Shown here one piece after another: positions 7,101 through 62,166 of a stretch of 64,000 nt of DNA. A program made the position numbers and the translations under genes. The first letter of the stretch is position 1. Each line of letters opens with the position of its first letter. This stretch comes from an uncultured Gammaproteobacteria bacterium (GTDB lineage: Bacteria; Patescibacteriota; Patescibacteriia; Magasanikbacterales; GWA2-37-8). The notes under the pieces are model-generated. The model was not told where the DNA came from and did no database searches. It saw nothing but the letters and a program-made list of their open reading frames with translations. Location: contig CAZINT010000001.1 in NCBI GenBank assembly GCA_964540825.1, positions 219,396 through 283,395 on the forward strand, read 5' to 3'.

Positions 7101-7334
7101 CATCATGATGTTCCGCAAAGTGCTCGTGAACGCATCGAATACAATTTGGATTTACTGCACTCATTTTATATCAGCGGCAGTACCAGTAGAAATGATTTAT
7201 CCGAAAAAGCCCGGCTTATTTTTGATGAAATAAATGAGCTCGAGATAAAGCTCCCCCCTAAGAAGTCGCCGACACTTCGGGAAGTCGTTCGGGGAATCGG
7301 AAAAAAATTATTCGATAAAATAAAGCGTCCATAA
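4149..7334 (+). CDS. very large coiled-coil hypothetical protein (1061 aa, E/A/K-rich)
   Basis: Uninterrupted 3.2-kb ORF in backbone composition. Third member of a co-directional, tightly spaced trio. Followed by an intrinsic terminator. Confidence 0.5.
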   Translation: MGKGGREAGAGKEVAPDKAKIDELLKRWEAVLRANPGIEAEAVTRMNLEFTLIGKIKNDKKRTKKIAELEAEIAQFEGVPSSKVPAVDNQDTLTVNTSLQTPHAQSQQLPEDVDADLVSGTAIDDYEEFSEDADEPPPEEKKDWGQPDLRTITLEDAEKEIDWAKKYPELETAIKGDLNQENERVFYGAYFRAYHEKGVTVFEDGLDGIASAEAVWAENEYESQVSEKKYTDLKKYALDNNINLAVDFPDVFARLEAARDALADAIELSTGEFRAANDVFLEILNELNASVDLFITEKIRIAEAEAEEQEKRKNFYDTVQQARAEFRSNFERYDIDPQEFFPVEDERAVNAIQHFEHVKDDEISIVEAAYTACLLAFSELHSALQEYIQSPNAASADLEKPITFAEAEQAIQWAKDEFARTKGKFGLPPQREPKSAKDTFEWGAYWRTQREGKGQMSQKELDEAAERNGECARRVFVERQFNVWFEALCKKAERAGVLNTLFDRYVKNDPAAGKVACKEKMLGPLETIERIAAYDEAHKNDANAKPFDLLSPAAQKEYRNRVLRAEGELTKLDREIGSLIKEKMWADPNNPDRAQLIAALAPEIAQHDAENALPLSQMATAADTYGFSPEARLAIQNVLTAWEGEHAAIIKKLAKLEEMQSDPRIPPAKVKSMCEAIVRQSAALSEKIQKGMEEYVVPELTKQTQAEIAALLALETVQAGIGSQKIIQEEQRVSAELSKARIALETALADFLTVPDARGQFLAAHQKYHEAATRVRYFQESVQPIRDAAKISEQYRAVSDTYSSAQQYLHYFSNELKMQLPNLSAECNDLERRLEVLAKKPEALALGEIAPAKDSVELFKQKVVAFKKMLEQATAEIPAAEKLRQEKKDTAFKDEMREEFIRFQDLRRRYESLKQDIDPKNNADLLRLFRSEIALRDEFSAKLKAAGNTNGLEQYKIAYKNEADRMDAALNYFSHSRLWKIVQSHHDVPQSARERIEYNLDLLHSFYISGSTSRNDLSEKARLIFDEINELEIKLPPKKSPTLREVVRGIGKKLFDKIKRP

Positions 7335-7340
7335 TAAAAA

Positions 7341-7368
7341 AATCCCCAGCAAATTGGGGATTTTTTTA
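7341..7368 (+). terminator. rho-independent terminator
   Basis: Hairpin atcccca-gcaaat-tggggat followed by tttttttat. Confidence 0.7.
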
Positions 7369-7379
7369 TCCCTCAAGGA

Positions 7380-7408
7380 TTGACAAAAAATATTTTTTAT
7401 GCTTAGAT
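7380..7408 (+). promoter_or_regulatory. sigma70-like promoter for high-GC cassette A
   Basis: TTGACA (7380-7385), 17-nt spacer, TTAGAT (7403-7408). AGGAGG at 7441-7446 with GTG 6 nt downstream. Confidence 0.5.
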
Positions 7409-7452
7409 AAGGGCATCAACAATTCATGCGGCTTTGCCGCAGGAGGTCCAAA

Positions 7453-8205
7453 GTGGCGACGCACAATGCTCTCGGTGACCCCGATGGTCCAACCCCTCCC
7501 TATGAGGACACAGCGGAGCTTAAAATTCCGCCTTCGCTTCGTGTTCGAATCAAGCAGGGGTTGGGGTGGACCTACGAGGTCGTGCTCGTTCCGGTCTGGA
7601 ACCGTGGGTTGAAGCCGCTGACGTCACCCATCATCGTTCGGGTGCCCAGTGCCGTCTCGTTCATGCGGCAGCAGCGGTGGAACATCGCACTCTTCGCTGC
7701 TCTGCTCCTGGCTATCGTGCTTGCATACGTAGGTTACAAGTACGAGACTGCCCGCATGCGGGCTGCCTTCGTTCCGGCCGATCAGGGCGAGCACAGCACG
7801 GCGACACCTGTTGACCGTGATAGCGACGGTGTGGCGGACGAGACGGATCAGTGTCCCGATGTAGCGTCCGGCCCCACGCCGGATGCGAAGCGGCCCGGTT
7901 GCCCAGCGCCCGAGCAACCTGCTGCTCCGGTCCCGGTCTACCCTGACCTGTCGATCCCTGCGCCTGCCGCGTTGCCCGAAGAACCGCAAGCCGCTCCGCC
8001 CGCTGATGTGGATGGTGATCACGATGGGGAAGCGGCCGTCCCGTCCCGTCGACGTCACGTGCCGCATCGTAGGTTCAAGGCTGCGGTCGAGACGCCGCGG
8101 GCCTTCTGCCTGCGTATGCAGCGGGACCAGCGCTGGAGCCCCTGCTGCCAAGACGGCATCCCGGTCGCATGTTCGCCCGCTTCCTCAGCGCCCCATCGGC
8201 GCTAA
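7453..8205 (+). CDS. high-GC membrane/exported protein with thrombospondin-type-3-like Ca-binding motif (cassette A)
   Basis: GTG start 6 nt after AGGAGG, in frame with the track ORF at 7426. Internal TM helix WNIALFAALLLAIVLAYVGY. Motif DRDSDGVADETDQCPDV...KRPGCP matches the DxDxDGxxDxxDxCP...GCP TSP3/OmpA-linker repeat. Pro-rich. Near-saturated GC3. The C-terminal ~60 aa is Arg-rich and may be frameshifted. Confidence 0.4.
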   Translation: MATHNALGDPDGPTPPYEDTAELKIPPSLRVRIKQGLGWTYEVVLVPVWNRGLKPLTSPIIVRVPSAVSFMRQQRWNIALFAALLLAIVLAYVGYKYETARMRAAFVPADQGEHSTATPVDRDSDGVADETDQCPDVASGPTPDAKRPGCPAPEQPAAPVPVYPDLSIPAPAALPEEPQAAPPADVDGDHDGEAAVPSRRRHVPHRRFKAAVETPRAFCLRMQRDQRWSPCCQDGIPVACSPASSAPHRR

Positions 8206-8286
8206 CCCACGATAGCGTGGAAGAGTCGCGTGTGTTGGAGCTTTTCCGACCGCGCGACTTGCTTTGTTTTTAGCCCCACGAGGCCC

Positions 8287-8315
8287 TTGACAAAACCTTA
8301 AAAATGTGCTATACT
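8287..8315 (+). promoter_or_regulatory. consensus sigma70 promoter for cassette B
   Basis: TTGACA, 17 nt, TGTGC TATACT (extended -10). Followed by an AT-rich leader of about 345 nt before the ATG at 8668. Confidence 0.6.
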
Positions 8316-8667
8316 GATTTGTTACGTAAATAGAAAACCACACAACTAGCCAAGAAGCTCGAGAGAGGCTTCAAAGGTTAGCCAAAAGACCTTGTTTTAG
8401 CCAATTCTCTCACCCCAGGGAGTTTTTTTAGCTAAGAATGAACTAAGGTAAGCGGATTTAGATCCTTTTACCTTAGATCCATTCTAGGGTCTAACGCTCT
8501 TTACAATATAACCCTAGTTAAAAACCTACCCACCAATAATCGGTGAAGTATGGCGCAGAGAATGAGTTACCCAATATTGAGTCATTCATTCTCTGTTCCA
8601 GCTTCATTGTGAAGTTGGGGGAGCTGGAACGCTCAGAAACGTCAACCTTTTCGCTGGAGAAAAGATC

Positions 8668-9834
8668 ATGAACAGCAAGCTCGCCTTTGTCATCGCCATC
8701 CTCGCCGGCCTCTCGTCCACCTCCACCGCCCACGCCTTGAGCAGCGCCCACGACTTCGGTCTGGTCGTCCTGGGTCCCACGGACGAGCCCATCCCGTCGT
8801 GGGACGGGAACCCGGGGTCGATGACCCCGGCGAACGTCTGCAAGGCCGAGGGCAAGATCATGGCCCTTCAGGAGCCGACCGACAAGATCCGTGGTGGCGC
8901 CGTCGCTCAGGATGACCTGACGGCCCGGCGCGGCACGGTGTCGTCGCCCCAGAAGTCGATCGGGATCGTCGCGAACCGCAGCCAGATCGCCGGCAAGCAC
9001 GCCGGCGCCGCCTACTGCGTCGCGAAGTCCCGTGTCCTCTTCGCCGAGGACGTCGAGCAGCTGAACAAGCTCCTCAAGATCCTCCACAGCTTCAACGGCC
9101 CCGACGGCATGACGCGCCTCCGCGCCCTGCTCGGCGACCTGCCGCAGGGCAAGGAGACGATCCGCGAGTGGGTCACCGCCGCCATCACGGCGGGCGATCA
9201 GGGCACTAGCCTCGACTCGGCCAACCCCTTCAGCCCCCTCGCGATCAAGATCGCCCAGCTCATCGCCGAGATCAATCAGATCAAGGTCGAGCTCGAGGCG
9301 CTCAAGGCCCGCGTCGGCCAGCTCGAGACCGCGGTCGCAGAGCACTCGGCTCAGATCGCCAAGCTCCAGCAGACGGGCCCTGTGACCGGTCGGACCTTCG
9401 ATCTTCAGCTCCAGGGCATCGCGAGTGGCAGCCGGTTCATGATCGGTCTCGGCGGTGGTGCGAACCTCGTGTTCCACCTTCCTGTGCCGCGCCTCAGCGT
9501 CAAGTTCGGTGGCGACCTCATGGCCGCCTTCGAGACGGTCGGGTCCAATCGTATGGGCCTCGGCTGGGACGCGCGTGCGTTCGTCCAGTATCAGCTGCGT
9601 GAGTGGCTGACCATTGGCGGCGGGCTCTACATCGTCGGTGATGCTGGTACGATCAACGGTACCCGGTCGTTCGACGTTGGCCCTGCGCTGGACGCCGAGT
9701 TCTGGGTTCACCCGTTCGTCGCCGTCAACGCCTTCGCCTTCATCGGTGGTGGCAAGCACAGCGCCAGCTGGGCCATGTCGCAGCTGGGCGGTGGTGGCGG
9801 TCTCGGGGTCGTCCTGCGTCCCTTCCGCAAGTAG
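8668..9834 (+). CDS. high-GC secreted protein: signal peptide, central coiled coil, Gly-rich beta-rich C-terminal domain (cassette B)
   Basis: SD GGAGAAAAG 5-6 nt upstream. Signal peptide MNSKLAFVIAILAGLSSTSTAHA. Heptad-like IAQLIAEINQIKVELEALKARVGQLETAV. C-terminal alternating hydrophobic beta pattern. GC3 about 90% by eye. Confidence 0.5.
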   Translation: MNSKLAFVIAILAGLSSTSTAHALSSAHDFGLVVLGPTDEPIPSWDGNPGSMTPANVCKAEGKIMALQEPTDKIRGGAVAQDDLTARRGTVSSPQKSIGIVANRSQIAGKHAGAAYCVAKSRVLFAEDVEQLNKLLKILHSFNGPDGMTRLRALLGDLPQGKETIREWVTAAITAGDQGTSLDSANPFSPLAIKIAQLIAEINQIKVELEALKARVGQLETAVAEHSAQIAKLQQTGPVTGRTFDLQLQGIASGSRFMIGLGGGANLVFHLPVPRLSVKFGGDLMAAFETVGSNRMGLGWDARAFVQYQLREWLTIGGGLYIVGDAGTINGTRSFDVGPALDAEFWVHPFVAVNAFAFIGGGKHSASWAMSQLGGGGGLGVVLRPFRK

Positions 9835-9852
9835 CGGATAAACTAGGGTTCG

Positions 9853-9890
9853 GAGGGGAGCGGTGGACAGTAATGTCTGCCGCCCCCTCC
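9853..9890 (+). terminator. GC hairpin after cassette B (putative terminator)
   Basis: ggagggg...cccctcc inverted repeat immediately after the stop. No clear U-run. Confidence 0.35.
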
Positions 9891-9958
9891 AAAACCACAT
9901 TCTGTTTCTGAACAAATGTTCGGCAACAGAAAATGGTTCAGTTAGCCAAAAAAACCTA

Positions 9959-9987
9959 TTGACAAAACCTCAAAAATATGGTATAGT
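9959..9987 (+). promoter_or_regulatory. consensus sigma70 promoter for cassette C
   Basis: TTGACA, 17 nt, TATAGT. About 230-nt AT-rich leader with a long imperfect hairpin (ggtttcgcggtt...aaccgcgaaccc) at 10112-10170. Confidence 0.6.
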
Positions 9988-10224
9988 ATGTCGTTATTAA
10001 ATACAGCAGGTGCTTAGGAGTAGCCCATTAAAAATGGTCTTCTCCTAGACACTTGGCTCTGCCAAAAGTCTACGTTCTTTACAATCACATTGCTACTACT
10101 CAAAATGTTCTCCTGAAGGTTTCGCGGTTATCAGTACTTACTAATTATTTGGTAAGGTACTGGAAACCGCGAACCCGCTGCGTGTCTTAGGACACGCAGC
10201 ACCCACGACCACCAGGAGATGAAC

Positions 10225-10938
10225 ATGAACACGAACCACGTCCGCGCCCTGCTCACCGCCGCCCTGCTCACGCTCGCCCCGACCTTCGTCGTGGGCTGTG
10301 CCCCCGAGCCGATGGACGGCACGCCGTCCACGGTCATCGGCGACCGCGACGGCGACGGCACCAAGGACAACGTCGACAAGTGCCCCGACCTCGCCGGGCC
10401 CGGCAGCAACAACGGCTGCCCGGTCACCAACATGAGCGGGGGCGAGCCCGTGCCCGCCACCCTCACCGACGCGATCTGCTACGATCGGGACCACCACTAC
10501 CCCCACGCCTGCGCGGGGGAGTGCGTGACCAAGGTCCAGGACTCGCTGAACTGCGGCGCCTGCGGCCGCCGGTGCAAGCCGACGGTCGAGGCCTGCGAGA
10601 ACAGCGTCTGCATCCCGGCCGGCTCCGCCAAGTGGGGCGCCTGGGTCCAGAACGCCACCAACCGCACCCTGAACCTCACGGTCGGCCACACCGAGCTCGG
10701 CATCAGCGCCGTCGAGGAGCAGATCACGCTCGCCCCCGGCGCCTGGTGGGGCAACGGCAACTGGACCGGCGTCTACGCCTCCGAGAACCCCTGGAAGGAG
10801 AACGTGATGCAGGAGTCCCTCGCGGACTGCCAGCTCAAGTTCAACGGCAAGGGCCGCCGCGAGGTCGTCTTCAAGACGAACAACCGCACCGGCGTCGGCC
10901 GCTGCGAGTTCAAGACCGACGCGGAGGGTAACCTCTAG
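10225..10938 (+). CDS. high-GC Cys-rich lipoprotein with TSP3-like Ca-binding motif (cassette C)
   Basis: AGGAG 6 nt upstream of the second ATG (10225). Lipobox-like FVVGC. IGDRDGDGTKDNVDKCPDLAGPGSNNGCP is a TSP3-type repeat. Multiple Cys pairs. Five N-x-T sequons. Confidence 0.5.
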   Translation: MNTNHVRALLTAALLTLAPTFVVGCAPEPMDGTPSTVIGDRDGDGTKDNVDKCPDLAGPGSNNGCPVTNMSGGEPVPATLTDAICYDRDHHYPHACAGECVTKVQDSLNCGACGRRCKPTVEACENSVCIPAGSAKWGAWVQNATNRTLNLTVGHTELGISAVEEQITLAPGAWWGNGNWTGVYASENPWKENVMQESLADCQLKFNGKGRREVVFKTNNRTGVGRCEFKTDAEGNL

Positions 10939-11143
10939 CCGGTCCGGTGCGACGAGTAGTAACAAGTGATTACCTACCCTGGTGGGCCCCGCACGACGAC
11001 TCGAAAGAGACGTCTACGCGGGGCCTGCCTTCTACTTCATACTCATAATCTCACCAGATTGTGGAGATACAGTAGAAATAAAATCCTACCAAAACATCCA
11101 CCCTTTCTCTCAAGGCTGGATGTTTTGTTTTTACTCCGACTGT

Positions 11144-11592
11144 AAGCAGGTTAGGCAGAGTAAGTACTAAGCAGAATAAGTTTTTATGTTAGATAATTTC
11201 TTTGGCTTTGTATCCAGCGGGTTAACAGCTTACCAACTTCTTCACACTGACTTCTTGCCTGATTATATTCTGATTCTTTTAGATAGTGTAAGTCGTGGGC
11301 GAGAATGAAGTGATATTTAGTTTCTTCGAGCGAAGCGTCAGCAATATTGTAAAATTTAATACTGTCTCGTAATTCTTTTCTTCTAAATCCTTCAACGATG
11401 TTAGTAGGTACTGAAGCAGCAGATCTTCGTATTTGGCTCGTTAAACCAAAGAGTTCGCTTTTTGGAAATTGGTTGGTAACTTTATAAACAAAAAGCACGA
11501 GCGTATGTGCCTTTTGCCAAACCTGTAATTCTGTAAAAACTTTTATTGTCGTCATGCTTATTCTGCTTAGGACTTACTCTGCCTAATCTGCT
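11144..11592. repeat. 37-bp inverted repeats (2 mismatches) bracketing the four-helix-bundle protein gene
   Basis: Left arm 11144-11180 aagcaggttaggcagagtaagtactaagcagaataag. Right arm 11556-11592 is its reverse complement apart from two mismatches. The arms abut the gene stop and start codons. Confidence 0.7.
11184..11555 (-). CDS. four-helix-bundle protein (23S rRNA intervening-sequence protein family, TIGR02436-like)
   Basis: 123 aa. LTSQIRRSAASVPTNIVEG and overall helical pattern typical of the family. Confidence 0.75.
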   Translation of the reverse strand: MTTIKVFTELQVWQKAHTLVLFVYKVTNQFPKSELFGLTSQIRRSAASVPTNIVEGFRRKELRDSIKFYNIADASLEETKYHFILAHDLHYLKESEYNQARSQCEEVGKLLTRWIQSQRNYLT

Positions 11593-11596
11593 TCGT

Positions 11597-13155: not shown

Positions 13156-15231
13156 ATGTGGTATACTACAGTAAAACCTATGAAGCGACTTACTAAACGT
13201 ACCGCCAAAAAAGCCATAGCCCCCAAAAATCATGCACTTGCGTGGTATCGGGGTGTGGTCGGCGTCGCCATCGGCCTTGTGGCCCTGGTTTTTTGTTTTC
13301 GGGCAACAACTATTTCCGCGCCGCTCTTGGCTAATTATTACTTAGGCACACTTCCGCAGGATGATGCGACGATTAGCTTACTGGCGCGTAATGATGTTTT
13401 GGTCTTGAGCAGCGAACAAGGGGTGATTCGTAAAGATGTTATTCAAAAAATCAAACAGAAAAATCCTAAGATTATTTTGCTGGCGTACGTTATCAGTAAA
13501 AGCTACGACTCAAACTGGAAGAATTATCCGGCTAATACCGTCTATAATGATTTCCAGGTTGACGACAGCTGCTGGCTCCGCGACAGTAAGGGTAATATTT
13601 TATCTGACTGGCCAGGACAAAAAAGCTTGAATATGAAAGAGCAGTGTACTGATTATTTGATCCAGTACACTAAGAACCATATTTTGTCGCAGGGTCTTTG
13701 GGATGGTGTTTTTTGGGATGTGGTGAATGGGAATATTGCTTGGACCAACCGGGGTGATATCGATCTCAATGGCGACGGGCAGATTGACAATCCGGCTGCT
13801 GCTGATGCTGAATGGTTGCGTCGGACAAACTACCTGCTCAGTCAGAGCCGTAAAGAGCTGCCGGTAAAATATTTTGTTATTAATGGAACTTCAATTCCGG
13901 CTGTGCAGCCGTATGTGAACGGCCGCATGTTTGAAAACTATCCAACTCCTTGGGAAGCAAATGGTTCGTGGGGAGGCCTCATGACCACGCTCGCCGCCAA
14001 CCAAAAAACAAACGTTGCGCCGCAGTTGTATATTTTTAATGCTAATACCAATAATACCGGTAACCAGTCAGACTACCGTAATATGCGTTTTGGTCTGACG
14101 AGCAGTCTTCTGACCAACAATACTTATTTTGCTTTTGACTATGGAACCAACGACCACAGTCAGACTTGGCAGTATGATGAATACAATGTAAAGCTCGGTG
14201 ATCCGGTTGCTCCGGCGGTATCGCGAAATAACGAAACGCAATTTAAAGAAACGGACGTGTGGAAACGTGAATACACCAACGGCATCGCGCTTGTAAATCC
14301 GACCGGGCAGTCGCAAACGGTAGACCTCGGGGCAGAATACGAAAAAATTATTGGTACGCAAGACAAACGCGTAAACGATGGCGCGATCACAGATCGTGTA
14401 ACGCTCGGCGCGAAAGACGGCATCGTGATGATGAAAACTTTGGAAGGTATCAGCAGTATTAAAAAAACGACTTTTAAAAATGGTTCGTTCTTACGCTTTT
14501 TTGACCTCAAGGGTAATCGTGCGCGTAACGGTTTCTTTGCGTTTGACAGCGCCTACCAAGGCAGTGCGACTATTTATCAGGGCGACCTGGACGGCGACGG
14601 CACGGAAGAAAAAGTAGTGGCAACGGGCGCTAAACTCGAAATTTTTAACAGCAGCGGCGAGCGCTGGTTTAATGATTATCCGTACGGTGGTAATTTTAAA
14701 GGAACGATTCAAATTGCAGTTGGTAAATTCTTCGGGTCCGCGACTAATCAGATTGTAGTTGCTCCTTCTAAAGGCGGAAAGGTATTAATTTATGATTATC
14801 ACGGCACGCTAATTAAGGATGATTTTTATCCGCTTGGTAAAAAATATCAAAACGGTTTTACCGTGGCAGTCGGCAGTCCGACCCCTAAGGATGCCGGCGA
14901 ACTTGTCGTTGGTGTTGGAAAGGGGAGTCCGACCGAAGTGTTGGTTTATGCAAGCGGTTTTGATAAAATCACCAAACGCTTTTTCCCCTATGACAAAAAG
15001 TTTACGGGTGGCGTTGCAATGGCGGTGGGTGATATCAACAATGACGGCGTAAATGAGATTGTAACCTTGCCGACAAAGGGTACCCCAACCGCTCGCGTGT
15101 ATACGACTGCAGGTAAAAAAGTATCTGAATTTAAAATACCATCGCTGTTCGGTTCTGTGCCGGTAGACATTACCATTGCGGATATTAACTTTGACGGCCG
15201 ATCCGAAATCGCTGTCATGAATGGACAATAG
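13156..15231 (+). CDS. secreted protein: N-terminal TM anchor, putative glycan-hydrolase-like domain, C-terminal FG-GAP/VCBS-type repeats
   Basis: 691 aa. Repeats DLDGDGTEEKVV / DINNDGVNEIV / DINFDGRSEIAV. N-terminal family assignment is uncertain. Confidence 0.45.
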   Translation: MWYTTVKPMKRLTKRTAKKAIAPKNHALAWYRGVVGVAIGLVALVFCFRATTISAPLLANYYLGTLPQDDATISLLARNDVLVLSSEQGVIRKDVIQKIKQKNPKIILLAYVISKSYDSNWKNYPANTVYNDFQVDDSCWLRDSKGNILSDWPGQKSLNMKEQCTDYLIQYTKNHILSQGLWDGVFWDVVNGNIAWTNRGDIDLNGDGQIDNPAAADAEWLRRTNYLLSQSRKELPVKYFVINGTSIPAVQPYVNGRMFENYPTPWEANGSWGGLMTTLAANQKTNVAPQLYIFNANTNNTGNQSDYRNMRFGLTSSLLTNNTYFAFDYGTNDHSQTWQYDEYNVKLGDPVAPAVSRNNETQFKETDVWKREYTNGIALVNPTGQSQTVDLGAEYEKIIGTQDKRVNDGAITDRVTLGAKDGIVMMKTLEGISSIKKTTFKNGSFLRFFDLKGNRARNGFFAFDSAYQGSATIYQGDLDGDGTEEKVVATGAKLEIFNSSGERWFNDYPYGGNFKGTIQIAVGKFFGSATNQIVVAPSKGGKVLIYDYHGTLIKDDFYPLGKKYQNGFTVAVGSPTPKDAGELVVGVGKGSPTEVLVYASGFDKITKRFFPYDKKFTGGVAMAVGDINNDGVNEIVTLPTKGTPTARVYTTAGKKVSEFKIPSLFGSVPVDITIADINFDGRSEIAVMNGQ

Positions 15232-15243: not shown

Positions 15244-15310
15244 TAAGCAGAGTAAGTACTAAGCAAAGTAAGTTTTGTGCTTACCTTGCTTACTCTGCCT
15301 AATCTGCTTA
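15244..15310. repeat. solo copy of the palindromic element seen at 11144-11592, between convergent genes
   Basis: taagcagagtaagtactaagcaaagtaag - ttttgtg - cttaccttgcttactctgcctaatctgctta. The arms are shortened versions of the 11144 and 11556 arms with no cargo gene. Confidence 0.6.
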
Positions 15311-30304: not shown

Positions 30305-30679
30305 TTATTCTTCCGGAAAGATTTGTTTACCCTGTTCATCGTAGAGAAGTATCGCCAGTACCGGGCATGACTGCGCAGACATAAGGAGCGTGTCGTCGTC
30401 GGCTGCGTCGGGGTCGACAATGTACGCCAGGTTTTCGTCATCCATCTGAAAGACACCAGGCGTAACGGCGACACACGAACGGGCCCCAATACACTTGGCC
30501 CGGTCAACAACAATGTGACGTATTTTCCCGGTGGCGCGAGCTCGATAATCATTTTTTTCAGGGAGTGGGAAGGGGAGTGGTGCGGTTGGCTCCATAGGAC
30601 GATTTGGTAAAGCTGTAAGCGGATTAGGCAGAATAGGCAAAGTAAGTATAATTTTAGCTTTGCTGAGGGTTATTGTCAA
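30305..30679 (-). CDS. ferredoxin-like protein
   Basis: CIGARSC...CP cluster-binding pattern. Confidence 0.45.
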   Translation of the reverse strand: MTITLSKAKIILTLPILPNPLTALPNRPMEPTAPLPFPLPEKNDYRARATGKIRHIVVDRAKCIGARSCVAVTPGVFQMDDENLAYIVDPDAADDDTLLMSAQSCPVLAILLYDEQGKQIFPEE

Positions 30680-31092
30680 CGTTTCAGATATGCTTCAAAC
30701 ACGGGGTACAGGTTTGGAATTACATTGGCCTGCATGTATTCTTTGGGGTCTATCCAGGCGTAGGCCGAGTGGTCGGTGCTAAGTGTTACGTGATCAGCTT
30801 CGGCTGTGCATTCAAAGAAAATACCAACAATTTGCCACGGTTCATCTTTAACCGTAGGCCGCCATTCGTTGACGAAGAACGGTTTGCCGATCGTTATCGC
30901 AAGCCCAGTTTCTTCCAGGACTTCACGCCGTAATGCATCGTCAAAGCGTTCGCCGGGCTGGATTCTGCCACCTACCACATCGTATTTGCTCGCATTGGTG
31001 CCATCTGCGTATTTATTGGATTCTTGCAGGACTAATATTTTGCCTTGGTAGGTAATAAAGGCCTTGGTAGCCACAAATAATTTTGGTTCCAT
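30676..31092 (-). CDS. NUDIX hydrolase
   Basis: Nudix box GGRIQPGERFDDALRREVLEETGL. Confidence 0.8.
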   Translation of the reverse strand: MEPKLFVATKAFITYQGKILVLQESNKYADGTNASKYDVVGGRIQPGERFDDALRREVLEETGLAITIGKPFFVNEWRPTVKDEPWQIVGIFFECTAEADHVTLSTDHSAYAWIDPKEYMQANVIPNLYPVFEAYLKR

Positions 31093-31096
31093 ACGT

Positions 31097-31423
31097 TTAA
31101 AAAATATCTCCTAAAAAATCGTCCTTGGCAATAGTGTCGAGTGTTGGGTGCACCAGTTTTTGCACTTCATTCTTGTCAATTTTTTCGGCAATCGTTTTGG
31201 TGTTGGCTTCGTGAATAATATATTCGTCATTAATCACCACGTTAGGGCCTTGTTCGCAGTAATCCACACATTCGGTAAAATCCAAATCAACTCGTTCGTT
31301 TTTTAAACCAAACGCCAGCCCAAAATGCTCTTCAAGCCGATTCATAATAGATTGTGAATTGCGCGCCGAGCATTTGTTGCCGCAGCAGACGCGAATTTGT
31401 TTAGGGGGCATACTGTTAAACAC
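31097..31423 (-). CDS. thioredoxin-like [2Fe-2S] ferredoxin (NuoE-like)
   Basis: CCGNKC ... CVDYC Cys pattern. Confidence 0.5.
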   Translation of the reverse strand: MFNSMPPKQIRVCCGNKCSARNSQSIMNRLEEHFGLAFGLKNERVDLDFTECVDYCEQGPNVVINDEYIIHEANTKTIAEKIDKNEVQKLVHPTLDTIAKDDFLGDIF

Positions 31424-31697
31424 CCATCATAACCCGAACTTCATCGGGTATTTTGTACGGCGGGTCAAAGGTAAGCTCTATGCTTACTTCCTGCCCGCTG
31501 CCGTCCAAAGCTTTTTTAATTTCCTCGTTAATTTGGGGGCCCCAGGGGCAAAAGGGGGTAGTATAGGTCATAAGAATATCGATTTTTTGGTCGGTAACGG
31601 TGAGTTTATAAATCAGGCCCATAGTCCAAATATCCAAAGCAATTTCAGGGTCTTTGACGGTTTTGAGTTTTTCGATTATCTGATCACGAGTAAACAT
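31416..31697 (-). CDS. Fe-S cluster assembly factor, DUF59/SufT-like
   Basis: DPEIALDIWTMGLIY and TPFCP motifs. Confidence 0.7.
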   Translation of the reverse strand: MFTRDQIIEKLKTVKDPEIALDIWTMGLIYKLTVTDQKIDILMTYTTPFCPWGPQINEEIKKALDGSGQEVSIELTFDPPYKIPDEVRVMMGV

Positions 31698-31701
31698 ACA
31701 G

Positions 31702-32430
31702 TTATTTATATTGTTCGTAGCCTTTGATTTCTATCTCCTTTGCCAACTCTTTCCCGCCAGATTTTACAATCTTTCCCTTTACCATAACATGTACAAAATC
31801 AGGCACGATGTATTCAAGAATGCGGTTGTAGTGGGTGATAAGTAACAATCCCTTTTCAGCTGTTCGGAATTTGTTGATGCCATCGGCGACAATGCGGAGT
31901 GCGTCGACATCGAGGCCGGAGTCGGTTTCGTCGAGGACAGCGTACGTGGGGTTAAGAAGAGCGAGTTGTAATACTTCAAGGCGTTTTTTTTCGCCGCCGG
32001 AAAAACCGATTCCGAGTGAGCGTTTGATAAACGCCAGGTCGATACTGAGACTGTTCATGGTTTCGGTTAGTTTTTTATGAAAGTCGAGCGGATTTTGCGG
32101 CTCGCCGCTAATTGCCTGCACCGCTGTACGTAGAAAATGCCCAACAGTAACACCTGCAAGCTCTGGTGGGTATTGCATGGATAAAAAGAGGCCGGCTTTG
32201 GCGCGTTTGTCGGGGGAGAGGGTGGTAAGGTCTTCACCCTTCAAGAGTATTTTACCGCTCGTAACGGTGTATTTAGGATGCCCGGCGAGCGTGTTGGCGA
32301 GCGTGGATTTGCCCGAGCCGTTGGGGCCCATAATGGCATGTACTTCGCCGGGGTTGATGACGAGACTTAGGTTTTCAATAATGATTTTATTGTCGGTAGT
32401 GATGGATAATTGTTGTAATTTAAGGGCCAT
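31702..32430 (-). CDS. sufC: Fe-S cluster assembly ATPase SufC
   Basis: Walker A GPNGSGKSTL and ABC signature. ATG at 32430 is preferred over the track TTG at 32454. Confidence 0.85.
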   Translation of the reverse strand: MALKLQQLSITTDNKIIIENLSLVINPGEVHAIMGPNGSGKSTLANTLAGHPKYTVTSGKILLKGEDLTTLSPDKRAKAGLFLSMQYPPELAGVTVGHFLRTAVQAISGEPQNPLDFHKKLTETMNSLSIDLAFIKRSLGIGFSGGEKKRLEVLQLALLNPTYAVLDETDSGLDVDALRIVADGINKFRTAEKGLLLITHYNRILEYIVPDFVHVMVKGKIVKSGGKELAKEIEIKGYEQYK

Positions 32431-32447: not shown

Positions 32448-32476
32448 TTGACAAAATGCTTAAAATGTGCTATACA
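32448..32476 (+). promoter_or_regulatory. consensus sigma70 promoter for cassette D (antisense to suf operon)
   Basis: TTGACA, 17 nt, TGTGC TATACA. The -35 element overlaps the sufC 5' end. Confidence 0.55.
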
Positions 32477-32567
32477 TAGGGGTAACTTGTGTAAACTATA
32501 GAACTTTAGTTTTGGCTAAAATGCTGTGGTTTCCGGACGTTATGTCCTTGATTTCGGAGGAAACACC

Positions 32568-32816
32568 ATGTGGCTCTTTGATCGTTGGGGCGATTTGTTC
32601 CAGGTCAGCATACTGGCAGGAATTGCCGTCCTCCCGGTCGTGCTGGTTGCCTTTCTGGTTGTGATCCAGGTTGCGATCTTGATCGTTCGTCGCAGCTTCG
32701 GCACGTTGGAGTACGGTCTCCTCTTGGGGGCTGCTCTCGCCTTCATCTTCCCCAAGAGGTCGATCGCCGCGCTCATCGTAGCGGCGCTGCTTGTTGCCCT
32801 CACCCTCCATCACTAA
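32568..32816 (+). CDS. high-GC small membrane protein, 82 aa (cassette D)
   Basis: GGAGG 7 nt upstream of the ATG. Two to three TM helices. GC-rich codons. Confidence 0.4.
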   Translation: MWLFDRWGDLFQVSILAGIAVLPVVLVAFLVVIQVAILIVRRSFGTLEYGLLLGAALAFIFPKRSIAALIVAALLVALTLHH

Positions 32817-32834
32817 GCCTGGGCATGCCTTCGC

Positions 32835-33242
32835 TTAGTTCGACCCGGTCTTCGTGACCGGGTTCGCTGTTTTTAAGCTATGCTGCAACGCCTTGAGACC
32901 CAGTAGGGCACAGCGCATGCGGGTTGGGTTTAGGTTTTTTAGGCCAAGTAAATCTAAAAGTGTTTCACCAGTTAGTTGCTCGATTTCTTGTTTGGTTTTA
33001 CCTTTGACATGTTCAGTAAGTAAGGAAGTGGCGGCTTGTGAAATGGCGCAGCCGTCGCCTTGGTAACCAATATCTTCCAGCCTATCACCGGCATCAAATT
33101 TAAGAAAGAGCTCGACTTTGTCGCCGCAGAGTGGATTGAATTCGACAAAACTGATATCAAAAACAGCCGGTCTTTTTTTGTTTAGCGGATGGCGATACAA
33201 ATCAAGGAGTAGTTCGGAATAAAGTTCTTGGTCAGTGTCCAT
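32835..33242 (-). CDS. sufU: SufU/IscU-type Fe-S scaffold
   Basis: NPLCGDKVEL ... GDGCAISQA motifs. Confidence 0.8.
   Translation of the reverse strand: MDTDQELYSELLLDLYRHPLNKKRPAVFDISFVEFNPLCGDKVELFLKFDAGDRLEDIGYQGDGCAISQAATSLLTEHVKGKTKQEIEQLTGETLLDLLGLKNLNPTRMRCALLGLKALQHSLKTANPVTKTGSN
32842..32875 (+). terminator. intrinsic terminator of cassette D
   Basis: gacccggtc-ttcgt-gaccgggtt then gctgttttt. Lies within the 3' coding end of sufU on the opposite strand. Confidence 0.55.
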
Positions 33243-33245: not shown

Positions 33246-33644
33246 TTATCTGTTTGCAAGCTGGCCTAAGCCACAGAGGAGCAATAACAATGGTGGTACA
33301 GCAGCGGCAAGCACGCGAACAAACTGGTGACGACAATGTATTTTTTCGTAGATGTATCCCGAAACAAAGGCGGTGAATGACCAAAGTATAATCGTGCACA
33401 AAGTAAACAGGCTTAAAGACATTGTATATGTTTGCGTATCAATAAGAGCTGATAGGCCAATGAGATTGCAAAGTCCAATGCAGGAAAGCCAAAAAATTGA
33501 GCCAATGGAAGCGAGGAGTGCAACTGGAATATTCCACAAGCTCGGGTCTGATTTCACAAACAAAAAATCATTAATAATGATCCAACCAAAAATGCCAATG
33601 AGTCCAAGGGCGGTGTAGAGGGTTGCCTCAAAGCGGGGTTTCAT
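33246..33644 (-). CDS. small membrane protein
   Basis: 132 aa, 4 TM helices. Confidence 0.4.
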   Translation of the reverse strand: MKPRFEATLYTALGLIGIFGWIIINDFLFVKSDPSLWNIPVALLASIGSIFWLSCIGLCNLIGLSALIDTQTYTMSLSLFTLCTIILWSFTAFVSGYIYEKIHCRHQFVRVLAAAVPPLLLLLCGLGQLANR

Positions 33645-37982: not shown

Positions 37983-38011
37983 TTGACAAAAGGTCTTTTT
38001 TGTGCTACACT
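37983..38011 (+). promoter_or_regulatory. consensus sigma70 promoter for cassette E
   Basis: TTGACA, 17 nt, TGTGC TACACT. About 200-nt AT-rich leader containing CGTTCTTTACAA. Confidence 0.55.
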
Positions 38012-38219
38012 ATTTGCGTCCTAGAATATAGGATAATCGTTCTTTACAAAGGAAATGATGAAGCAGGGCTCCCTGTTTGTGAGCGTTCCTGGTTACGAAG
38101 AAAGCTAATCTTAGCGGTTATTTTTCTCTGTAACGGGAGCTCCCCGGAGCTTAAAGTCTGGAATTCAGACTTTCCCTACTTCTCTTTCCTCAAAACTACA
38201 CACAGGAGTGTACGGTACA

Positions 38220-38804
38220 ATGTTCACCAAAAGTCTCCTCGCCGTGGTTCTGTTCACGCTTCTCGGTCTCTTGTCCTCGGCTCGTGCTGAATGTCACGCA
38301 GCGTCGGCAGGGCCCCACCACAGCATGGAAGTTGCTGTTAGCCTCGGATCTACGATTTGGGTCACTCACCCCGTAGAAGCCACCTTTGGTGCCGTACTCG
38401 GCATGCCGGTCAGCCACGATGGCTGCTGGTGGGTGCGCGGTGCCATCGAGCTCTACAAGCCGATCGGCAACCAGCCGCCTGGTTTCGCCGGCATTCTTTC
38501 GCTCACGCGGCGTATCAACCCCCGTTTGGAGCTTGGTGTTGCCGCCAGTGCCTTGTTGCCGTTTACGGAAGAGGCATACCACCACCCCGAAGAGGGGGCT
38601 GGGCTGCCGCCTCGTGAAGGTGTCATCCTTGTAGCTGGTCCGCAACTTCGCCTTCAGCCGACCGCGGCCTTTCCGACCATCGTCGTTACCCCCATGGGTG
38701 GTTACGAAATGAACGTCGGCAACGTGCTTGGTCTTTCGGTGGAGTTCGAGGCTGACCTCACTGGGGCCGTCTTCGACCTCGTGCACCGCCTGCGTCGCCA
38801 CTGA
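38220..38804 (+). CDS. high-GC secreted beta-rich protein (cassette E)
   Basis: Signal peptide MFTKSLLAVVLFTLLGLLSSARA. Alternating hydrophobic pattern suggests a beta fold. GC-rich. Confidence 0.45.
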   Translation: MFTKSLLAVVLFTLLGLLSSARAECHAASAGPHHSMEVAVSLGSTIWVTHPVEATFGAVLGMPVSHDGCWWVRGAIELYKPIGNQPPGFAGILSLTRRINPRLELGVAASALLPFTEEAYHHPEEGAGLPPREGVILVAGPQLRLQPTAAFPTIVVTPMGGYEMNVGNVLGLSVEFEADLTGAVFDLVHRLRRH

Positions 38805-38910
38805 CGCCACTTACTTTGTGTAGTTACTATCCAACGGGAGCTTCGGCTCCCCGGTTTCCAGAGTACAGAATTGACCTATTGTGTGTGCTGGCCGACCGTG
38901 CGCAAAAAGC

Positions 38911-45002: not shown

Positions 45003-45074
45003 GGCCCGTTCGTCTATCAGTTAGGACAGTGCCCTCTCACGGCGCAAAGACGGGTGCGATTCCCGTACGGGCTA
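45003..45074 (+). tRNA. atypical tRNA-like gene, anticodon CUC (Glu-like)
   Basis: Hand-folded cloverleaf. Acceptor ggcccgt/acgggct with G1.U72; D-stem gtct/ggac; anticodon stem gtgcc/ggcgc; loop cuCUCac; T-arm acggg-tgcgatt-cccgt. Deviations are G at position 55 and U at position 19. CCA is not encoded. Confidence 0.45.
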
Positions 45075-45089
45075 CAGAGAATTGAAAAA

Positions 45090-45109
45090 CAGAGCAAGCT
45101 CTGTTTTTT
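45090..45109 (+). terminator. intrinsic terminator after the tRNA-like gene
   Basis: cagagc-aa-gctctg then tttttt. Confidence 0.7.
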
Positions 45110-45250
45110 GTTATTATAGTGTTTTGAGTTGGTAGTGTTTGGTTTGGAGTGGTCATTTATTAACTGGCGTAATTATTGAAAATAAAATTCAATAGTGATA
45201 CTATGAGGGCAGTGAATTTGCTTAAATTAAGGAGTTTTAGGTAAAATATT

Positions 45251-47221
45251 TTGATAAAATGCGGTATGCAAAACTTGTTAAATGATGTACTAAAACTACT
45301 AGAAAGTGATGATGGGTTTTTTGCGGAAAACAAGATGTTAAAAAATGTTGTAACCGAAGCAGCTCTAAAATTGGATACGGCGCTTTTGGAATTACTACAA
45401 AAAAACAATCAAATAAAAAAGCATTTTTTCGTGCAGGCCGCGGGAGTGTGGTTTTTTGATCAAGACAAGTTTATTAAGTTTATCAACAGCAAAGATTTTC
45501 TGCCTGATTCGTTTACCATTTTTAAGAACCATATAGGTCTTACGGACGGTGACGAGTATCTAAAAGATAGTGGAAAAGTGGTTTTGGCGTGGCCGTATAA
45601 AGATTGTGTTTTGGAGGGAGGACAGGACAAAGAAGATGTAAAACAGAGCGAAATTTTTTATAACGAGACCCTTGCGCCGGATGAAATTGACCGGCTGTTC
45701 GAGCCTAAGGTCTTAACCAATCTTAAAAAGATAGATAAAGACGGTGAACACAAGGTCGAGCAAATAAATGAACAGGATAATTTGATAATCAAAGGTAATA
45801 ATCTTTTAGCCCTCCATTCGTTAAAGAAAAAATATCGCGGCAAGGTTAAGCTGATTTACATTGATCCGCCGTATAACACCGGCAGCGATGGTTTTAACTA
45901 TAACGACAGTTTTAACCATTCAACGTGGCTGACTTTTATGAAAAATCGGCTCGAAGTAGCTAAACAGCTGTTGAGTGAGGAGGGTTCAATTTATATTTCA
46001 ATTGATAACAATGAATTGCCATATCTACAGATTTTAATGGATGAAATTTTTGGAAATGAAAATAAGAAAAATATTATTACTGTAAAAAGAAGTGCTGTTT
46101 CAGGTGCAAAAGTTATCAATCCGGGCGTTGTTAATGTTTCGGAATTTATTATTGTATATTCAAAAGATTTTAAGAAGTGGCAAGCTAATAAAGTTTTTAG
46201 AAAAAAAGGTAGGGATGAGAGGTATAACAACTATATAACAAACTTCGAAAGTGAGCCTGAAAAATGGAAATTTTCTTCAGTATTAGACGGTTGGGCTGAG
46301 TCGCTTGGAATAGAGAAAACAAAATTAAAAAAGTATTTTGGCGATAATTATGATGAGGAATTAGAAAAGTTTTATCTGCTTAATGCTCACAGAATAATGC
46401 AGTTCGTAACACTGGATGAGAATGCGGTTTCAGATGAAGTGATAAAAATAAAAAATAAATCTAAAAATGATTCATCCAGAGTACATCGGTTGAAAAGAGA
46501 AAATGGAAAATTAGATTACTTTATATTTAAAGGAAAAGCGATTTTATTTTTAGTAAACAGATTAATGGAAATTGACGGTGAAAAGGTTTTTGCAGAGCCA
46601 TTAACTGATATTTGGGAGGATGTTCTGCCTAACGACTTACATAACGAAGGTGGAGTATCTTTAAAAAAAGGGAAAAAGCCGGAAAAATTAATTCAAAGAA
46701 TAATTGAGCTCAGCAGTAAGTCTGGTGATTTAATTTTAGATTACCATTTAGGAAGCGGGACAACGGCAGCTGTAGCACATAAAATGGGTAGGCGGTATAT
46801 TTGTGTTGAACAGCTGGATTACGGCAACAATGATAGTGTCGTAAGGTTACAAAATACTATAAAAGGTGAGCAAAGCGGAATTTCAAAAGCTGTAAATTGG
46901 AAAGGCGGGGGCTCTTTTGTGTATGCCGAATTAAAGCAATGGAATGAGGAGTATATGCAGGCTATACAGGAGGCCAAAACTGCAAAGGAAATAGCCGCTA
47001 TTTATAAAAAAATGCGTGCTGAAGCATTTTTCCGGTACGAGGTTGATTTAAGCAGGTTTGAACAGAAGCAATTTGACCAATTGACTTTAGACGAGCAGAA
47101 AAAAGTTTTGCTTCTATGTTTGGACAAAAATCATCTGTATGTAAATTACAGTGAAATGGAAGATGCAACCTATAAAATACTTACCGAAGAAAAGAAAATT
47201 AACAAGCAATTTTACAGCTAA
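45251..47221 (+). CDS. mod: type III restriction-modification methyltransferase (Mod)
   Basis: IYIDPPYNTG (DPPY N6-adenine MTase motif). Very AT-rich. Confidence 0.85.
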   Translation: MIKCGMQNLLNDVLKLLESDDGFFAENKMLKNVVTEAALKLDTALLELLQKNNQIKKHFFVQAAGVWFFDQDKFIKFINSKDFLPDSFTIFKNHIGLTDGDEYLKDSGKVVLAWPYKDCVLEGGQDKEDVKQSEIFYNETLAPDEIDRLFEPKVLTNLKKIDKDGEHKVEQINEQDNLIIKGNNLLALHSLKKKYRGKVKLIYIDPPYNTGSDGFNYNDSFNHSTWLTFMKNRLEVAKQLLSEEGSIYISIDNNELPYLQILMDEIFGNENKKNIITVKRSAVSGAKVINPGVVNVSEFIIVYSKDFKKWQANKVFRKKGRDERYNNYITNFESEPEKWKFSSVLDGWAESLGIEKTKLKKYFGDNYDEELEKFYLLNAHRIMQFVTLDENAVSDEVIKIKNKSKNDSSRVHRLKRENGKLDYFIFKGKAILFLVNRLMEIDGEKVFAEPLTDIWEDVLPNDLHNEGGVSLKKGKKPEKLIQRIIELSSKSGDLILDYHLGSGTTAAVAHKMGRRYICVEQLDYGNNDSVVRLQNTIKGEQSGISKAVNWKGGGSFVYAELKQWNEEYMQAIQEAKTAKEIAAIYKKMRAEAFFRYEVDLSRFEQKQFDQLTLDEQKKVLLLCLDKNHLYVNYSEMEDATYKILTEEKKINKQFYS

Positions 47222-47229
47222 AAATTTTT

Positions 47230-49842: not shown

Positions 49843-49851
49843 TTTTAATTT

Positions 49852-50760
49852 GTGTCCCTCTTCAAAATCACCAATCAAAAAACCAAGAAAATTCTTCCTG
49901 CTAAAGTTCTTAAAGAACAATACATACATTCTTTATTTGAAGCTAACCTTGAGGAATTACTCGGTATATACTTTTTGGCACACGAATATAGCACCTCGGC
50001 AGGCGGTAGAATCGATACGCTTGGAGTAGATAAAAACGGTTCACCGTGCGTGATTGAATATAAAAAAGGCCAAAACGACAATGTTATTAATCAAGGATTG
50101 TCGTATTTACGCTGGCTTTTGGATCACAAAGCCGATTTTGAAAGGCTGTGCCAAAACAAAAATTTTAAAGTGAGTATTGATTGGACTTCGCCTCGAGTTA
50201 TTTGTATCGCTGAAAACTATAATAAGTTTGATATCGATACCGTAGAAATATTGCCCATAAAAATTGAATTGTTAAAATACGGCTTGTATGATGGCGGGTT
50301 GTTGCAGTTGGAACACGAGAAACACGACAATATAAAAGTAAGTACAGGTGAAATATATAAAAATTCCAAGAAAGACAATAAGGTAGTGGGCGAAAAGCTT
50401 CAAAAAGAATATAGCGTTGATCATCATTTGCAAGGCAAAAAAGAAGAAATCAAAAAAATCTTTTTTGATATTAGGGAATGGGTCACTAACCTTGATAAGG
50501 ATATTGTTGAGGAACCGAAAAAGTTATATGTCGCCTATAAGTTAGCCACCAATTTTGTTGATGTCGAAATTCGGAGTAAAGATATAAAACTATTTTTGAA
50601 TATACCAAAGGGGAAATTAAATGATCCTCTGGGGTTGGCTCGAGATGTTTCGAGCGTTGGGCATTGGGGAAATGGCGATTATGAGGTAAAAATAACTACT
50701 AAGAGCGATTTAGAGCCTGTGTATGGCCTGGTGCGGCAGAGTTATGAATTTAATAAATAA
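49852..50760 (+). CDS. PD-(D/E)xK nuclease-like protein (DUF91/NucS-like N-terminus plus C-terminal domain of unknown function)
   Basis: GGRIDTLGVDKNGSPCVIEYKKGQ (D...ExK). 9 nt after res. Same AT-rich composition. Confidence 0.45.
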   Translation: MSLFKITNQKTKKILPAKVLKEQYIHSLFEANLEELLGIYFLAHEYSTSAGGRIDTLGVDKNGSPCVIEYKKGQNDNVINQGLSYLRWLLDHKADFERLCQNKNFKVSIDWTSPRVICIAENYNKFDIDTVEILPIKIELLKYGLYDGGLLQLEHEKHDNIKVSTGEIYKNSKKDNKVVGEKLQKEYSVDHHLQGKKEEIKKIFFDIREWVTNLDKDIVEEPKKLYVAYKLATNFVDVEIRSKDIKLFLNIPKGKLNDPLGLARDVSSVGHWGNGDYEVKITTKSDLEPVYGLVRQSYEFNK

Positions 50761-56670: not shown

Positions 56671-56756
56671 AGGTTTCTTCCTTCCTTTTTTGCAGGTCTG
56701 TTGCTTCTTTTAGGTTTAGCTATAGTAAGCCTAAAAGAAGCAGCAAACCACCCATC

Positions 56757-62136: not shown

Positions 62137-62166
62137 GAGGAGGAAAGAGCGGGGGTAGGCGGGGAG

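Follow-up and report, generated by a model that had tools for sequence, protein, structure and literature searches.

We analysed a 64-kb stretch of DNA (contig CAZINT010000001.1, positions 219,396 to 283,395; here called the window), and in particular one slot in it that holds three genes of deviating base composition, cassettes A, B and C, side by side on the forward strand. The open reading frames (ORFs) of these cassettes have a GC content of 65-70% in a window of about 45%, the spacers separating them are of about 40% GC, and the GC borders are sharp. GC at the third codon position (GC3) is 0.69 in A, 0.88 in B and 0.99 in C, compared with 0.40-0.52 in the neighbouring host genes, and the high GC reaches into the untranslated flanks and the terminator hairpins. 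An earlier reading made from the letters alone (the sequence-only reading) had pointed to adjacent high-GC exported proteins, and three forward-strand ORFs are indeed found at that position. The explanation we favour, and to which we would give about an even chance, is that these are moron-like surface-protein genes which would have been imported repeatedly, are driven by host promoters and may be controlled by Nus factors acting at a boxA element. The whole interpretation rests on sequence analysis: composition, cassette anatomy, the exchange of cassettes among genomes, the identity of the repeat and the fit and specificity of the box are observed, whereas foreign origin, Nus binding, the direction of regulation and surface display are deduced.

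The slot is bordered by a gene for a coiled-coil protein of about 1,050 amino acids (aa) on one side and by a 23S-IVP gene and an O-antigen-ligase (Wzy) gene on the other. For comparison we used two sister loci, L001 and L002, from two relatives found by a genome scan with Wzy. These are metagenome-assembled genomes (MAGs; assemblies CAZECR01 and CAZWKA01) originating from Polish wastewater and river samples (PMC9405806), and the amino acid identity of Wzy to that of the window is 94% for L001 and 83% for L002. Cassettes are named A, B, C, 38k and 62k in the window, L1_c1 to L1_c3 in L001 and L2_c1 to L2_c3 in L002. Coordinates are collected in Table 1.

Build of the cassettes

Each of the three genes has its own promoter and its own terminator-like hairpin. 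In common they have a host-type sigma-70 promoter, then a Shine-Dalgarno sequence ahead of an ORF that includes an export signal, and a GC-rich hairpin at the end; in B, C and most of the sister-genome cassettes there is also a long structured leader, with a boxA-like element at its beginning. The promoters of B and C are of the host type TTGACA-17-TATAnT, a type also used elsewhere in the window, and that of C is 89% identical to the promoter of the L002 array. The promoter stretch of A, together with the terminator upstream of it, is 80% identical to the position ahead of L1_c3 in L001. It was not flagged in the consensus promoter scan because its -10 hexamer is weak.

Protein A begins with a cytoplasmic part and has a single transmembrane helix (WNIALFAALLLAIVLAYVGY), after which come a degenerate thrombospondin-type-3 (TSP3) repeat, a linker rich in Pro and Ala, and a tail that is basic and Cys-rich. 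Protein B starts with a signal peptide ending AHA/L, its helical region includes a coiled coil at about residues 190-235, and its C-terminus is beta-rich. Protein C carries the lipobox VVGC and a single TSP3 repeat, together with a Cys-rich stretch of the STIG1-like type; its C-terminal domain is beta-rich and an orphan. The sequence-only reading had described A as a transmembrane protein, C as a Cys-rich lipoprotein and B, between them, as a secreted coiled-coil/beta protein, and all three descriptions agree with these features. Translation of C probably starts at the second ATG, at 10225, because of the spacing to the Shine-Dalgarno sequence. An ORF on the reverse strand of A (7624-8151), whose product is Arg-rich, was rejected as an antisense artefact. 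The frame plot backs the forward frame, and first-position GC is high in A because its own frame encodes an Ala/Pro/Asp/Gly-rich linker. Single-sequence AlphaFold models were of low confidence and unusable (pLDDT 37 for B and 33.6 for C).

No homologue of B was found among 5.8 billion proteins, and none of C outside its TSP3 repeat in homologue searches including exhaustive phmmer. Exact-sequence look-ups of B, C, BipA and the 62k lipoprotein gave no record. The STIG1-like family (PF04885, cut-off 24.1 bits) matches C marginally above the cut-off (24.6 bits, E 3.5e-5) and L1_c2 at 17.9 bits; the other cassette proteins have no Pfam family. Ten cassette proteins were compared with PHROG without a match, except for a weak one to cassette 1 of L001 (E 0.0036).

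With Rfam only tRNAs reach the gathering score, and no rRNA was found in the window or in the fetched loci. A relaxed search of 7300-11250 gave only a sub-threshold rimP-leader match at 7301-7399, on both strands, plus one match near E = 1. The rimP-leader match overlaps the terminator region of the gene upstream.

The boxA-like element and the leaders

Eight high-GC ORFs, spread over the three genomes, are preceded by an invariant box G[CT]TCTTTACAA, 112-181 nucleotides (nt) before the start codon. It is carried by B, C and 38k in the window and by all array cassettes of L001 and L002 except L1_c3. The census covered the window and 84 fetched loci; all eight exact matches are sense-oriented ahead of high-GC ORFs, and none occurs elsewhere. 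When the eight sites are aligned, only the box positions are invariant and nothing is conserved around them.

The published boxA consensus is GYTCTTTAANA (PMC5725501), and the box agrees with it at 10 of 11 positions, including the Y at position 2. This consensus is that of E. coli and may not be that of the host; boxA consensus sequences drift between phyla. NusB and NusE recognise 8 nt of boxA (PMC3177189), and boxA ahead of CRISPR arrays counters Rho (PMC7665894). We also considered the box as the -35 element (TTTACA) of a sigma-70 promoter and rejected it, as only one of the eight copies has a -10 element at the right spacing, and a poor one.

The leaders are strongly structured, with fold z-scores from -2.7 to -9.1. 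Past the box comes first a long hairpin whose tip is AT-rich, then another hairpin and finally the Shine-Dalgarno sequence. A variable hairpin usually precedes the box. The cassette mRNAs are C-rich, with C/G ratios of 1.08-1.76.

Three further observations concern promoters and boxes. The hairpin with T7 that stands between promoter and boxA in B (AGGGAGTTTTTTTA) is also present in the leader of L002 cassette 1 (about 14935-14960, reverse strand), again between promoter and boxA; it may act as an attenuator or mark where a small RNA of about 110 nt ends. A motif TTAGCCAAAA (or AAGCCAAAA) lies around cassette promoters in all three genomes (window 8377-8405 and 9941-9955; L001 11585-11650; L002 about 15085-15100) and may be an UP-element or the site of a regulator. 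A boxA-like string matching 10 of 11 positions, GCTCTTTACAC, occurs at 56651-56661 on the reverse strand inside codons 4-7 of the 56k lipoprotein ORF, where it may be due to chance or be a displaced element.

Turnover and age of the cassettes

The window, L001 and L002 have collinear flanks and different high-GC cassettes in one and the same slot, between Wzy (or Wzy and IVP) and the large coiled-coil gene. L001 has three cassettes. One of them, L1_c3, stands at the position of A with the same promoter, the same architecture and a weak similarity (z 3.4). Another, L1_c2, is homologous to C (35% identical over 152 aa), lies in inverted orientation and lacks the TSP3 repeat. L002 has three other cassettes behind one shared promoter. 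B has no counterpart in L001 or L002.

Leaders and ORFs do not travel together. The leaders of C and L1_c2 are unrelated although the ORFs are homologous. The leaders of L002 cassettes 1 and 2 (14753-14925 and 14009-14130, reverse strand) are paralogous, sharing a AAGACAGGAC...GCCCTGTCTT stem and a CCCCACGC.GGGGA hairpin; as they stand on unrelated ORFs, this suggests that leaders and ORFs recombine independently. The array of L002 contains a long poly-G/C tract (13700-13800) inside cassette 2; the protein encoded by this cassette is Pro-rich, and the cassette probably suffers from a frameshift or from poor assembly. The array of L001 contains a scaffold gap of 100 N (14138-14237). For both reasons the array structure in the sister MAGs is not fully reliable.

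At four-fold degenerate sites of Wzy, 56% differ between the window and L001, corresponding to about 1 substitution per site. The cassettes fall into GC3 classes of about 0.66 (A, L1_c3 and 38k), 0.84-0.88, and 0.95-0.99 (C, 62k, L1_c1, L1_c2, L2_c1 and L2_c3), and GC at the first and second codon positions (GC1 and GC2) is typical of high-GC genes throughout. Genes inherited since the split of window and L001 should have lost about half of their excess GC3, which fits the class of about 0.66. Given the divergence of Wzy, cassettes with a GC3 of 0.95-0.99 must be much younger than that split. The differences in GC3 indicate that A, B and C are not of the same age or source, and we read the classes as probable serial imports at different stages of drift toward the host composition.

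The TSP3 repeat

The sequence-only reading had found a TSP3 motif in A and in C. Translated in all six frames, the window contains just two occurrences of the strict motif D.D.DG..D..D.CP, at 7813-7857 in A and at 10342-10386 in C, and the motif is absent from the sister loci L001 and L002; the two copies thus stand as claimed, clear in C and degenerate in A. C has the exact acidic loop DxDxDGxxDxxD followed by CP...GCP, with two Cys per repeat, and A has the same with an insertion of 4 residues, which sits before GCP. A and C can be aligned solely over the repeat stretch (45% identity over 42 aa).

In the profile search with Pfam TSP_3 (PF02412, gathering score 25 bits), by which the sequence-only reading would have had its motif judged, neither protein reaches the cut-off: A scores 13.5 bits (E 0.058) and C 16.8 bits (E 0.0054), C staying below because it holds a single copy. 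The same profile search of A, B and C gave no match to OmpA, so the occurrence of single copies without an OmpA domain was correctly seen. Exhaustive phmmer with C gave 1,900 matches, and in all 150 listed the best stretch extends little beyond residues 41-70. Nine targets were scanned (eight from phmmer and one other); all nine have multi-copy TSP_3 (52-144 bits) and five have OmpA as well. The five 27-aa repeats of the 'OmpA family protein' in PDB entry 5WTL can each be aligned with C (E 4.4e-16), and the repeat of A is only weakly similar to them (E 0.074).

On these alignments the copy in C qualifies as a true bacterial TSP3 repeat and that in A as a probable degenerate one. Repeats of the type seen in 5WTL reportedly bind calcium. 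The repeat is a predicted calcium-binding, disulfide-stapled module from OmpA-type proteins of diderm bacteria, which hints at where the genes may have come from. The nucleotide identity between the repeats of A and C is about 61% (counted by hand), and synonymous codons end in T in A and in C in C; with such different codons, one repeat is not a recent copy of the other. The repeat is a small shuffled module and gives no evidence of a joint function of A and C. The TSP3 observation is correct and minor, since one shuffled repeat of this kind is nothing new; the sequence-only reading missed what is more unusual here, namely the leaders with their boxA-like element and the cassette turnover.

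Proposed mechanism and alternative explanations

We propose that the slot holds three independent single-gene cassettes, with foreign-looking coding parts that would come from high-GC sources; A would be membrane-anchored, B secreted and C a lipoprotein. Host sigma-70 promoters would fire, and the boxA RNA would be bound by NusB and NusE (S10), nucleating a Nus-factor complex on the RNA polymerase. With this complex the polymerase would get through the leader, which is long and untranslated, and through the C-rich ORF; where an array has no internal promoters, it would also read across the hairpins between cassettes. Sec would export the products, the host Lgt would lipidate the lipoproteins, and the exported products may form a strain-specific surface coat.

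Several points weigh against this proposal. Position 9 of the box is C and not A as in the E. coli consensus, and A and four other islands have no exact copy of the box. A Nus complex that assembles at boxA would come too late to counter the terminator-like hairpin standing upstream of it in B. The argument from slow translation is weak, the cassettes not being rich in host-rare codons; a rare-codon argument for Rho sensitivity was dropped, since codon usage in the host is flat and the scores of cassettes and host genes are almost alike. No donor was found, and a recent import from a sampled lineage is not supported by the searches with B, C and P450. No integration mechanism is visible. C and L1_c2 are homologous at the same slot, which could mean a native fast-evolving family, and Nus factors at boxA can also repress. 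The host lineage, too, is deduced from the sequence, and NCBI labels the sister MAGs 'uncultured Gammaproteobacteria bacterium'.

A first alternative is that the box does bind Nus factors and acts as a brake or as an RNA-folding device, coupling expression to the availability of Nus factors or ribosomes. There are precedents in suhB and in nutL-N, where boxA ahead of the gene represses (translational repression, followed by Rho termination) and can be as far as about 200 nt from the Shine-Dalgarno sequence that follows it, nutL being about 200 bp ahead of N; here box and start codon are 112-181 nt apart. Long hairpins follow the box as they do in rRNA leaders, in which Nus factors help RNA folding. 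This is set against the promoter-less arrays (L001 cassettes 1 to 2; L002 cassettes 1 to 2 to 3), where the box is repeated after each preceding hairpin; the repetition makes most sense if the complex must reload for read-through. The precedent of the CRISPR arrays also points to antitermination. We regard a brake or folding device as unlikely.

A second alternative is that the genes are native, fast-evolving surface genes whose extreme GC3 is actively maintained, for instance through a recombination hot spot with GC-biased gene conversion or through selection acting at the mRNA level. It would account for the lack of any donor or close homologue in very large databases, for the C-type family member in the same slot of two genomes, for A and L1_c3 as positional counterparts with the same promoter and architecture, and for promoters, boxA and leaders that are all host-like. 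The continuation of high GC into untranslated flanks and terminator hairpins argues against it, as do the discrete GC3 classes with their high-GC-like GC1 and GC2, which fit drift to the host composition, and the leaders of C and L1_c2, which are not co-inherited with the ORFs. BipA relatives at 65-73% identity have no islands within about 6 kb of BipA, and large high-GC diderm genomes are where modules of the P450, TSP3 and STIG1-like kinds are typically found. A native origin is distinctly improbable in our judgement, and we infer that the cassettes are probably foreign.

The sequence-only reading had suggested that A, B and C may together form one surface module for calcium binding or adhesion, tied by the TSP3 repeat. 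The three genes are adjacent and on the same strand, all have export or anchor signals, and the repeat of C, and perhaps also that of A, is homologous to those of an OmpA-family protein. The shared part amounts to only about 30 aa, and the genes have separate promoters and hairpins and differ in GC3. L001 and L002 carry other cassettes, B lacks a counterpart there, and the C-type protein of L001 is without the repeat, so that independent presence and absence of the three genes is already seen in two sister genomes. The differing content of the slot speaks against a conserved A-B-C module, and this suggestion is not supported; we give it little credence.

The box could also be the core site of an integron-like site-specific recombination, with the units as mobile cassettes. 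It marks the 5' edge of each unit in the multi-cassette arrays, a variable hairpin precedes it, the content turns over, and two L002 leaders are paralogous despite differing ORFs. Against this, no integrase was found with Pfam/NCBIfam among the window ORFs of at least 120 aa without a larger overlapping ORF, a scan that left out five short ORFs (30305-30679, 30676-31092, 31359-31727, and IscU/NifU-type 32835-33242 and 33246-33644). The attC pattern RYYYAAC...GTTRRRY is absent from both strands of the three arrays. Transposon-like borders were also looked for and rejected, as there are no flanking direct or inverted repeats. Orientation varies and cassettes have their own promoters, the box lies within the transcribed leader and agrees with boxA at all but one position of the consensus, and single cassettes elsewhere in the genome share the same build. 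We consider a recombination site very improbable.

Finally, assembly chimeras or contamination, conceivable in metagenome assemblies with an N-gap in L001 and a poly-G/C tract in L002, have a negligible probability, as islands occur in the same slot of three genomes fused to host-type promoters and leaders, and three GC junctions recur, 100% identical, in the Logan assemblies of two individual runs; the GC junctions are real.

Import of moron-like genes under host promoters and boxA control, the explanation favoured here, can be extended to a dedicated platform for the adoption of foreign genes. Surface genes of high-GC diderm bacteria, possibly hosts or prey, would be taken into a few slots and placed behind a host promoter and a boxA leader; antitermination would override the silencing of foreign, C-rich transcripts, and a strain-specific, fast-turnover coat would be built from borrowed TSP3, STIG1-like and beta-rich parts. 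We put this forward tentatively, with the balance clearly against it. BoxA, morons and cassette arrays are each already known; no description of a boxA-led slot of high-GC surface cassettes was found in the literature searched.

If the favoured explanation is correct, an ultra-small and probably symbiotic bacterium would diversify its surface by adopting foreign high-GC genes and not by mutating its own, and its slots would turn over faster than synonymous sites saturate. Control by boxA and Nus factors would extend from rRNA, lambda, CRISPR arrays and a few housekeeping mRNAs to xenogeneic protein genes, providing a counterpart of RfaH/ops in a lineage in which transcription control is essentially unstudied. 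The 11-nt box together with the jump in GC3 could serve as a marker for such genes and, by way of composition, for partner organisms.

Further cassettes and genomic context

Besides A, B and C the window has at least five further high-GC single-gene islands, most of them behind the same type of promoter (Table 1). For the cytochrome P450 island the best non-self match is only 31% identical and comes from a genome of 64.5% GC. A Logan contig of SRR11567528 contains this island in a 1.8-kb stretch that spans the GC junction and is 100% identical to the window.

Table 1. Features of the slot and of the other high-GC units in the window
Feature	Position	Strand	Remarks
Promoter-like site of A	7380..7408	+	TTGACA, 17 nt, TTAGAT, TG ahead; read from sequence
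Cassette A ORF	7453..8205	+	250 aa; GTG start 6 nt past AGGAGG; GC3 0.69
TSP3-like repeat of A	7813..7905	+	DRDSDGVADETDQCPDVASGPTPDAKRPGCP; 31 aa, 4-aa insertion relative to the 27-aa unit
GC-rich hairpin and T-run past A, terminator-like	8224..8271	+	read from sequence
Promoter of B	8287..8315	+	TTGACA, 17 nt, TATACT, TG extension; 11/12 consensus positions
Terminator-like hairpin and T7 between promoter B and boxA	8407..8429	+	AGGGAGTTTTTTTA; possible attenuator
boxA-like element of B	8496..8506	+	GCTCTTTACAA
Structured 5' leader of B	8507..8667	+	long hairpin 8551-8600, second hairpin, Shine-Dalgarno GGAG; fold z-score -4.5; inverted repeat
Cassette B ORF	8668..9834	+	388 aa; GC3 0.88
GC-rich hairpin past B, terminator-like	9852..9890	+	without T-run; read from sequence
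Promoter of C	9959..9987	+	TTGACA, 17 nt, TATAGT, TG extension; 11/12 consensus positions
boxA-like element of C	10074..10084	+	GTTCTTTACAA
Structured 5' leader of C	10085..10218	+	hairpins 10118-10176 (long) and 10177-10200, Shine-Dalgarno AGGAG; fold z-score -9.1; inverted repeat
Cassette C ORF	10219..10938	+	239 aa; GC3 0.99
TSP3 repeat of C	10342..10422	+	DRDGDGTKDNVDKCPDLAGPGSNNGCP; full 27-aa unit
GC-rich hairpin past C	10985..11025	+	end of the high-GC segment; read from sequence
Island with small membrane protein	32448-32870	+	82 aa; promoter-gene-hairpin unit; no Pfam/PHROG family
38k cassette	37985..38860	+	promoter 37985, boxA 38039-38049, structured leader, hairpin
38k ORF	38220-38804	+	secreted 194-aa protein; GC3 0.67; no Pfam/PHROG family
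Cytochrome P450 single-gene island	51526-52872	-	GC 63%; GC3 0.84
56k unit	56200-56790	-	156-aa lipoprotein; no Pfam/PHROG family
62k unit	62090-63480	-	382-aa lipoprotein; GC3 0.95; no Pfam/PHROG family

The housekeeping genes of the window include those for MurB, MurC, MurD-type ligases, an MraY-like transferase, PBP2, SufB, SufS, BipA and GpsA, and genes for GatA, TsaE, Lgt (59959-60720), an LtaS-like sulfatase-domain protein and Wzy are also present. Most of the housekeeping proteins stay below the NCBIfam equivalog cut-offs. The closest relatives of BipA are 65-73% identical and come from low-GC groundwater, aquifer and digester contigs, one of them of 1.02 Mb. Among these relatives no high-GC islands were found within about 6 kb of BipA, and no box. 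A metagenome scan with the Wzy alignment gave no relatives. From the gene content and the nearest BipA relatives, the host chromosome appears to be one of about 45% GC and of the Candidate Phyla Radiation (CPR)/Patescibacteria type. The many high-GC genes may have misled the Gammaproteobacteria labelling of the sister MAGs.

Two other units were seen near or beyond the slot. A 23S-rRNA-IVP/bAvd-like gene (11184-11555, reverse strand) is bracketed by TAAGCAGAGTAAGTACTAAGCA / CTTACTCTGCCTAATCTGCTT repeats (11152-11593), which occur again at 15244-15309. Its presence in L002 and absence at the same place in L001 suggest that the gene is a small unit of the mobile or indel kind. A low-GC island (45003-50760, 34-37% GC) lies directly past tRNA-Glu(CTC) and encodes a type III restriction-modification methylase, a Res helicase and a DUF5655 protein; it is a typical integration beside a tRNA.

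Comparison with known systems

With the OmpA-family TSP3 proteins, C shares the complete 27-aa unit that is found in the repeats of 5WTL and in about 1,900 multi-repeat proteins, and A shares a degenerate unit. The repeats form tandem arrays there, whereas A and C have one copy each and lack both the OmpA C-terminal domain and an N-terminal porin barrel. Here the repeat is carried by a lipoprotein with an orphan domain (C) or by a single-pass membrane protein (A).

Morons are reportedly, from the work of Hendrix and Juhala, promoter-gene-terminator units of deviant composition that often hold genes for lipoproteins or outer-membrane proteins. The cassettes resemble the morons of phages in being single-gene units with their own promoter and hairpin, a composition unlike that of the flanks and mostly exported or lipoprotein products. 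They differ in that they are not located in a prophage, their neighbours being Wzy, Mur ligases, BipA, SufB, GatA and TsaE, and in that they are clustered in a slot with turnover and have boxA leaders.

Integron arrays likewise consist of single-ORF units, mostly orphans with export signals, whose content differs between close relatives. Here there is no attC and no integrase among the scanned ORFs of the 64 kb (the five short ORFs aside), and the units have their own promoters and mixed orientation.

Like the boxA signals of rrn operons, lambda nut sites, CRISPR arrays and suhB, the box is sense-oriented in a transcribed leader, often has a hairpin ahead of it and precedes RNA whose 5' part is long and untranslated. 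For CPR-type bacteria no description of boxA was found in the literature searched. The putative boxA described here differs in standing ahead of protein genes of foreign composition, in being repeated before each array gene and in having C at position 9.

The processive antitermination of horizontally acquired operons by RfaH/ops and LoaP (PMC5449661, PMC12691694) follows the logic proposed here, in which a leader element recruits an elongation factor and premature termination of foreign or long operons is avoided. In the cassettes the recruiting element would be boxA, read by NusB and NusE, rather than ops or a specialised NusG paralogue, and the predicted targets are single genes.

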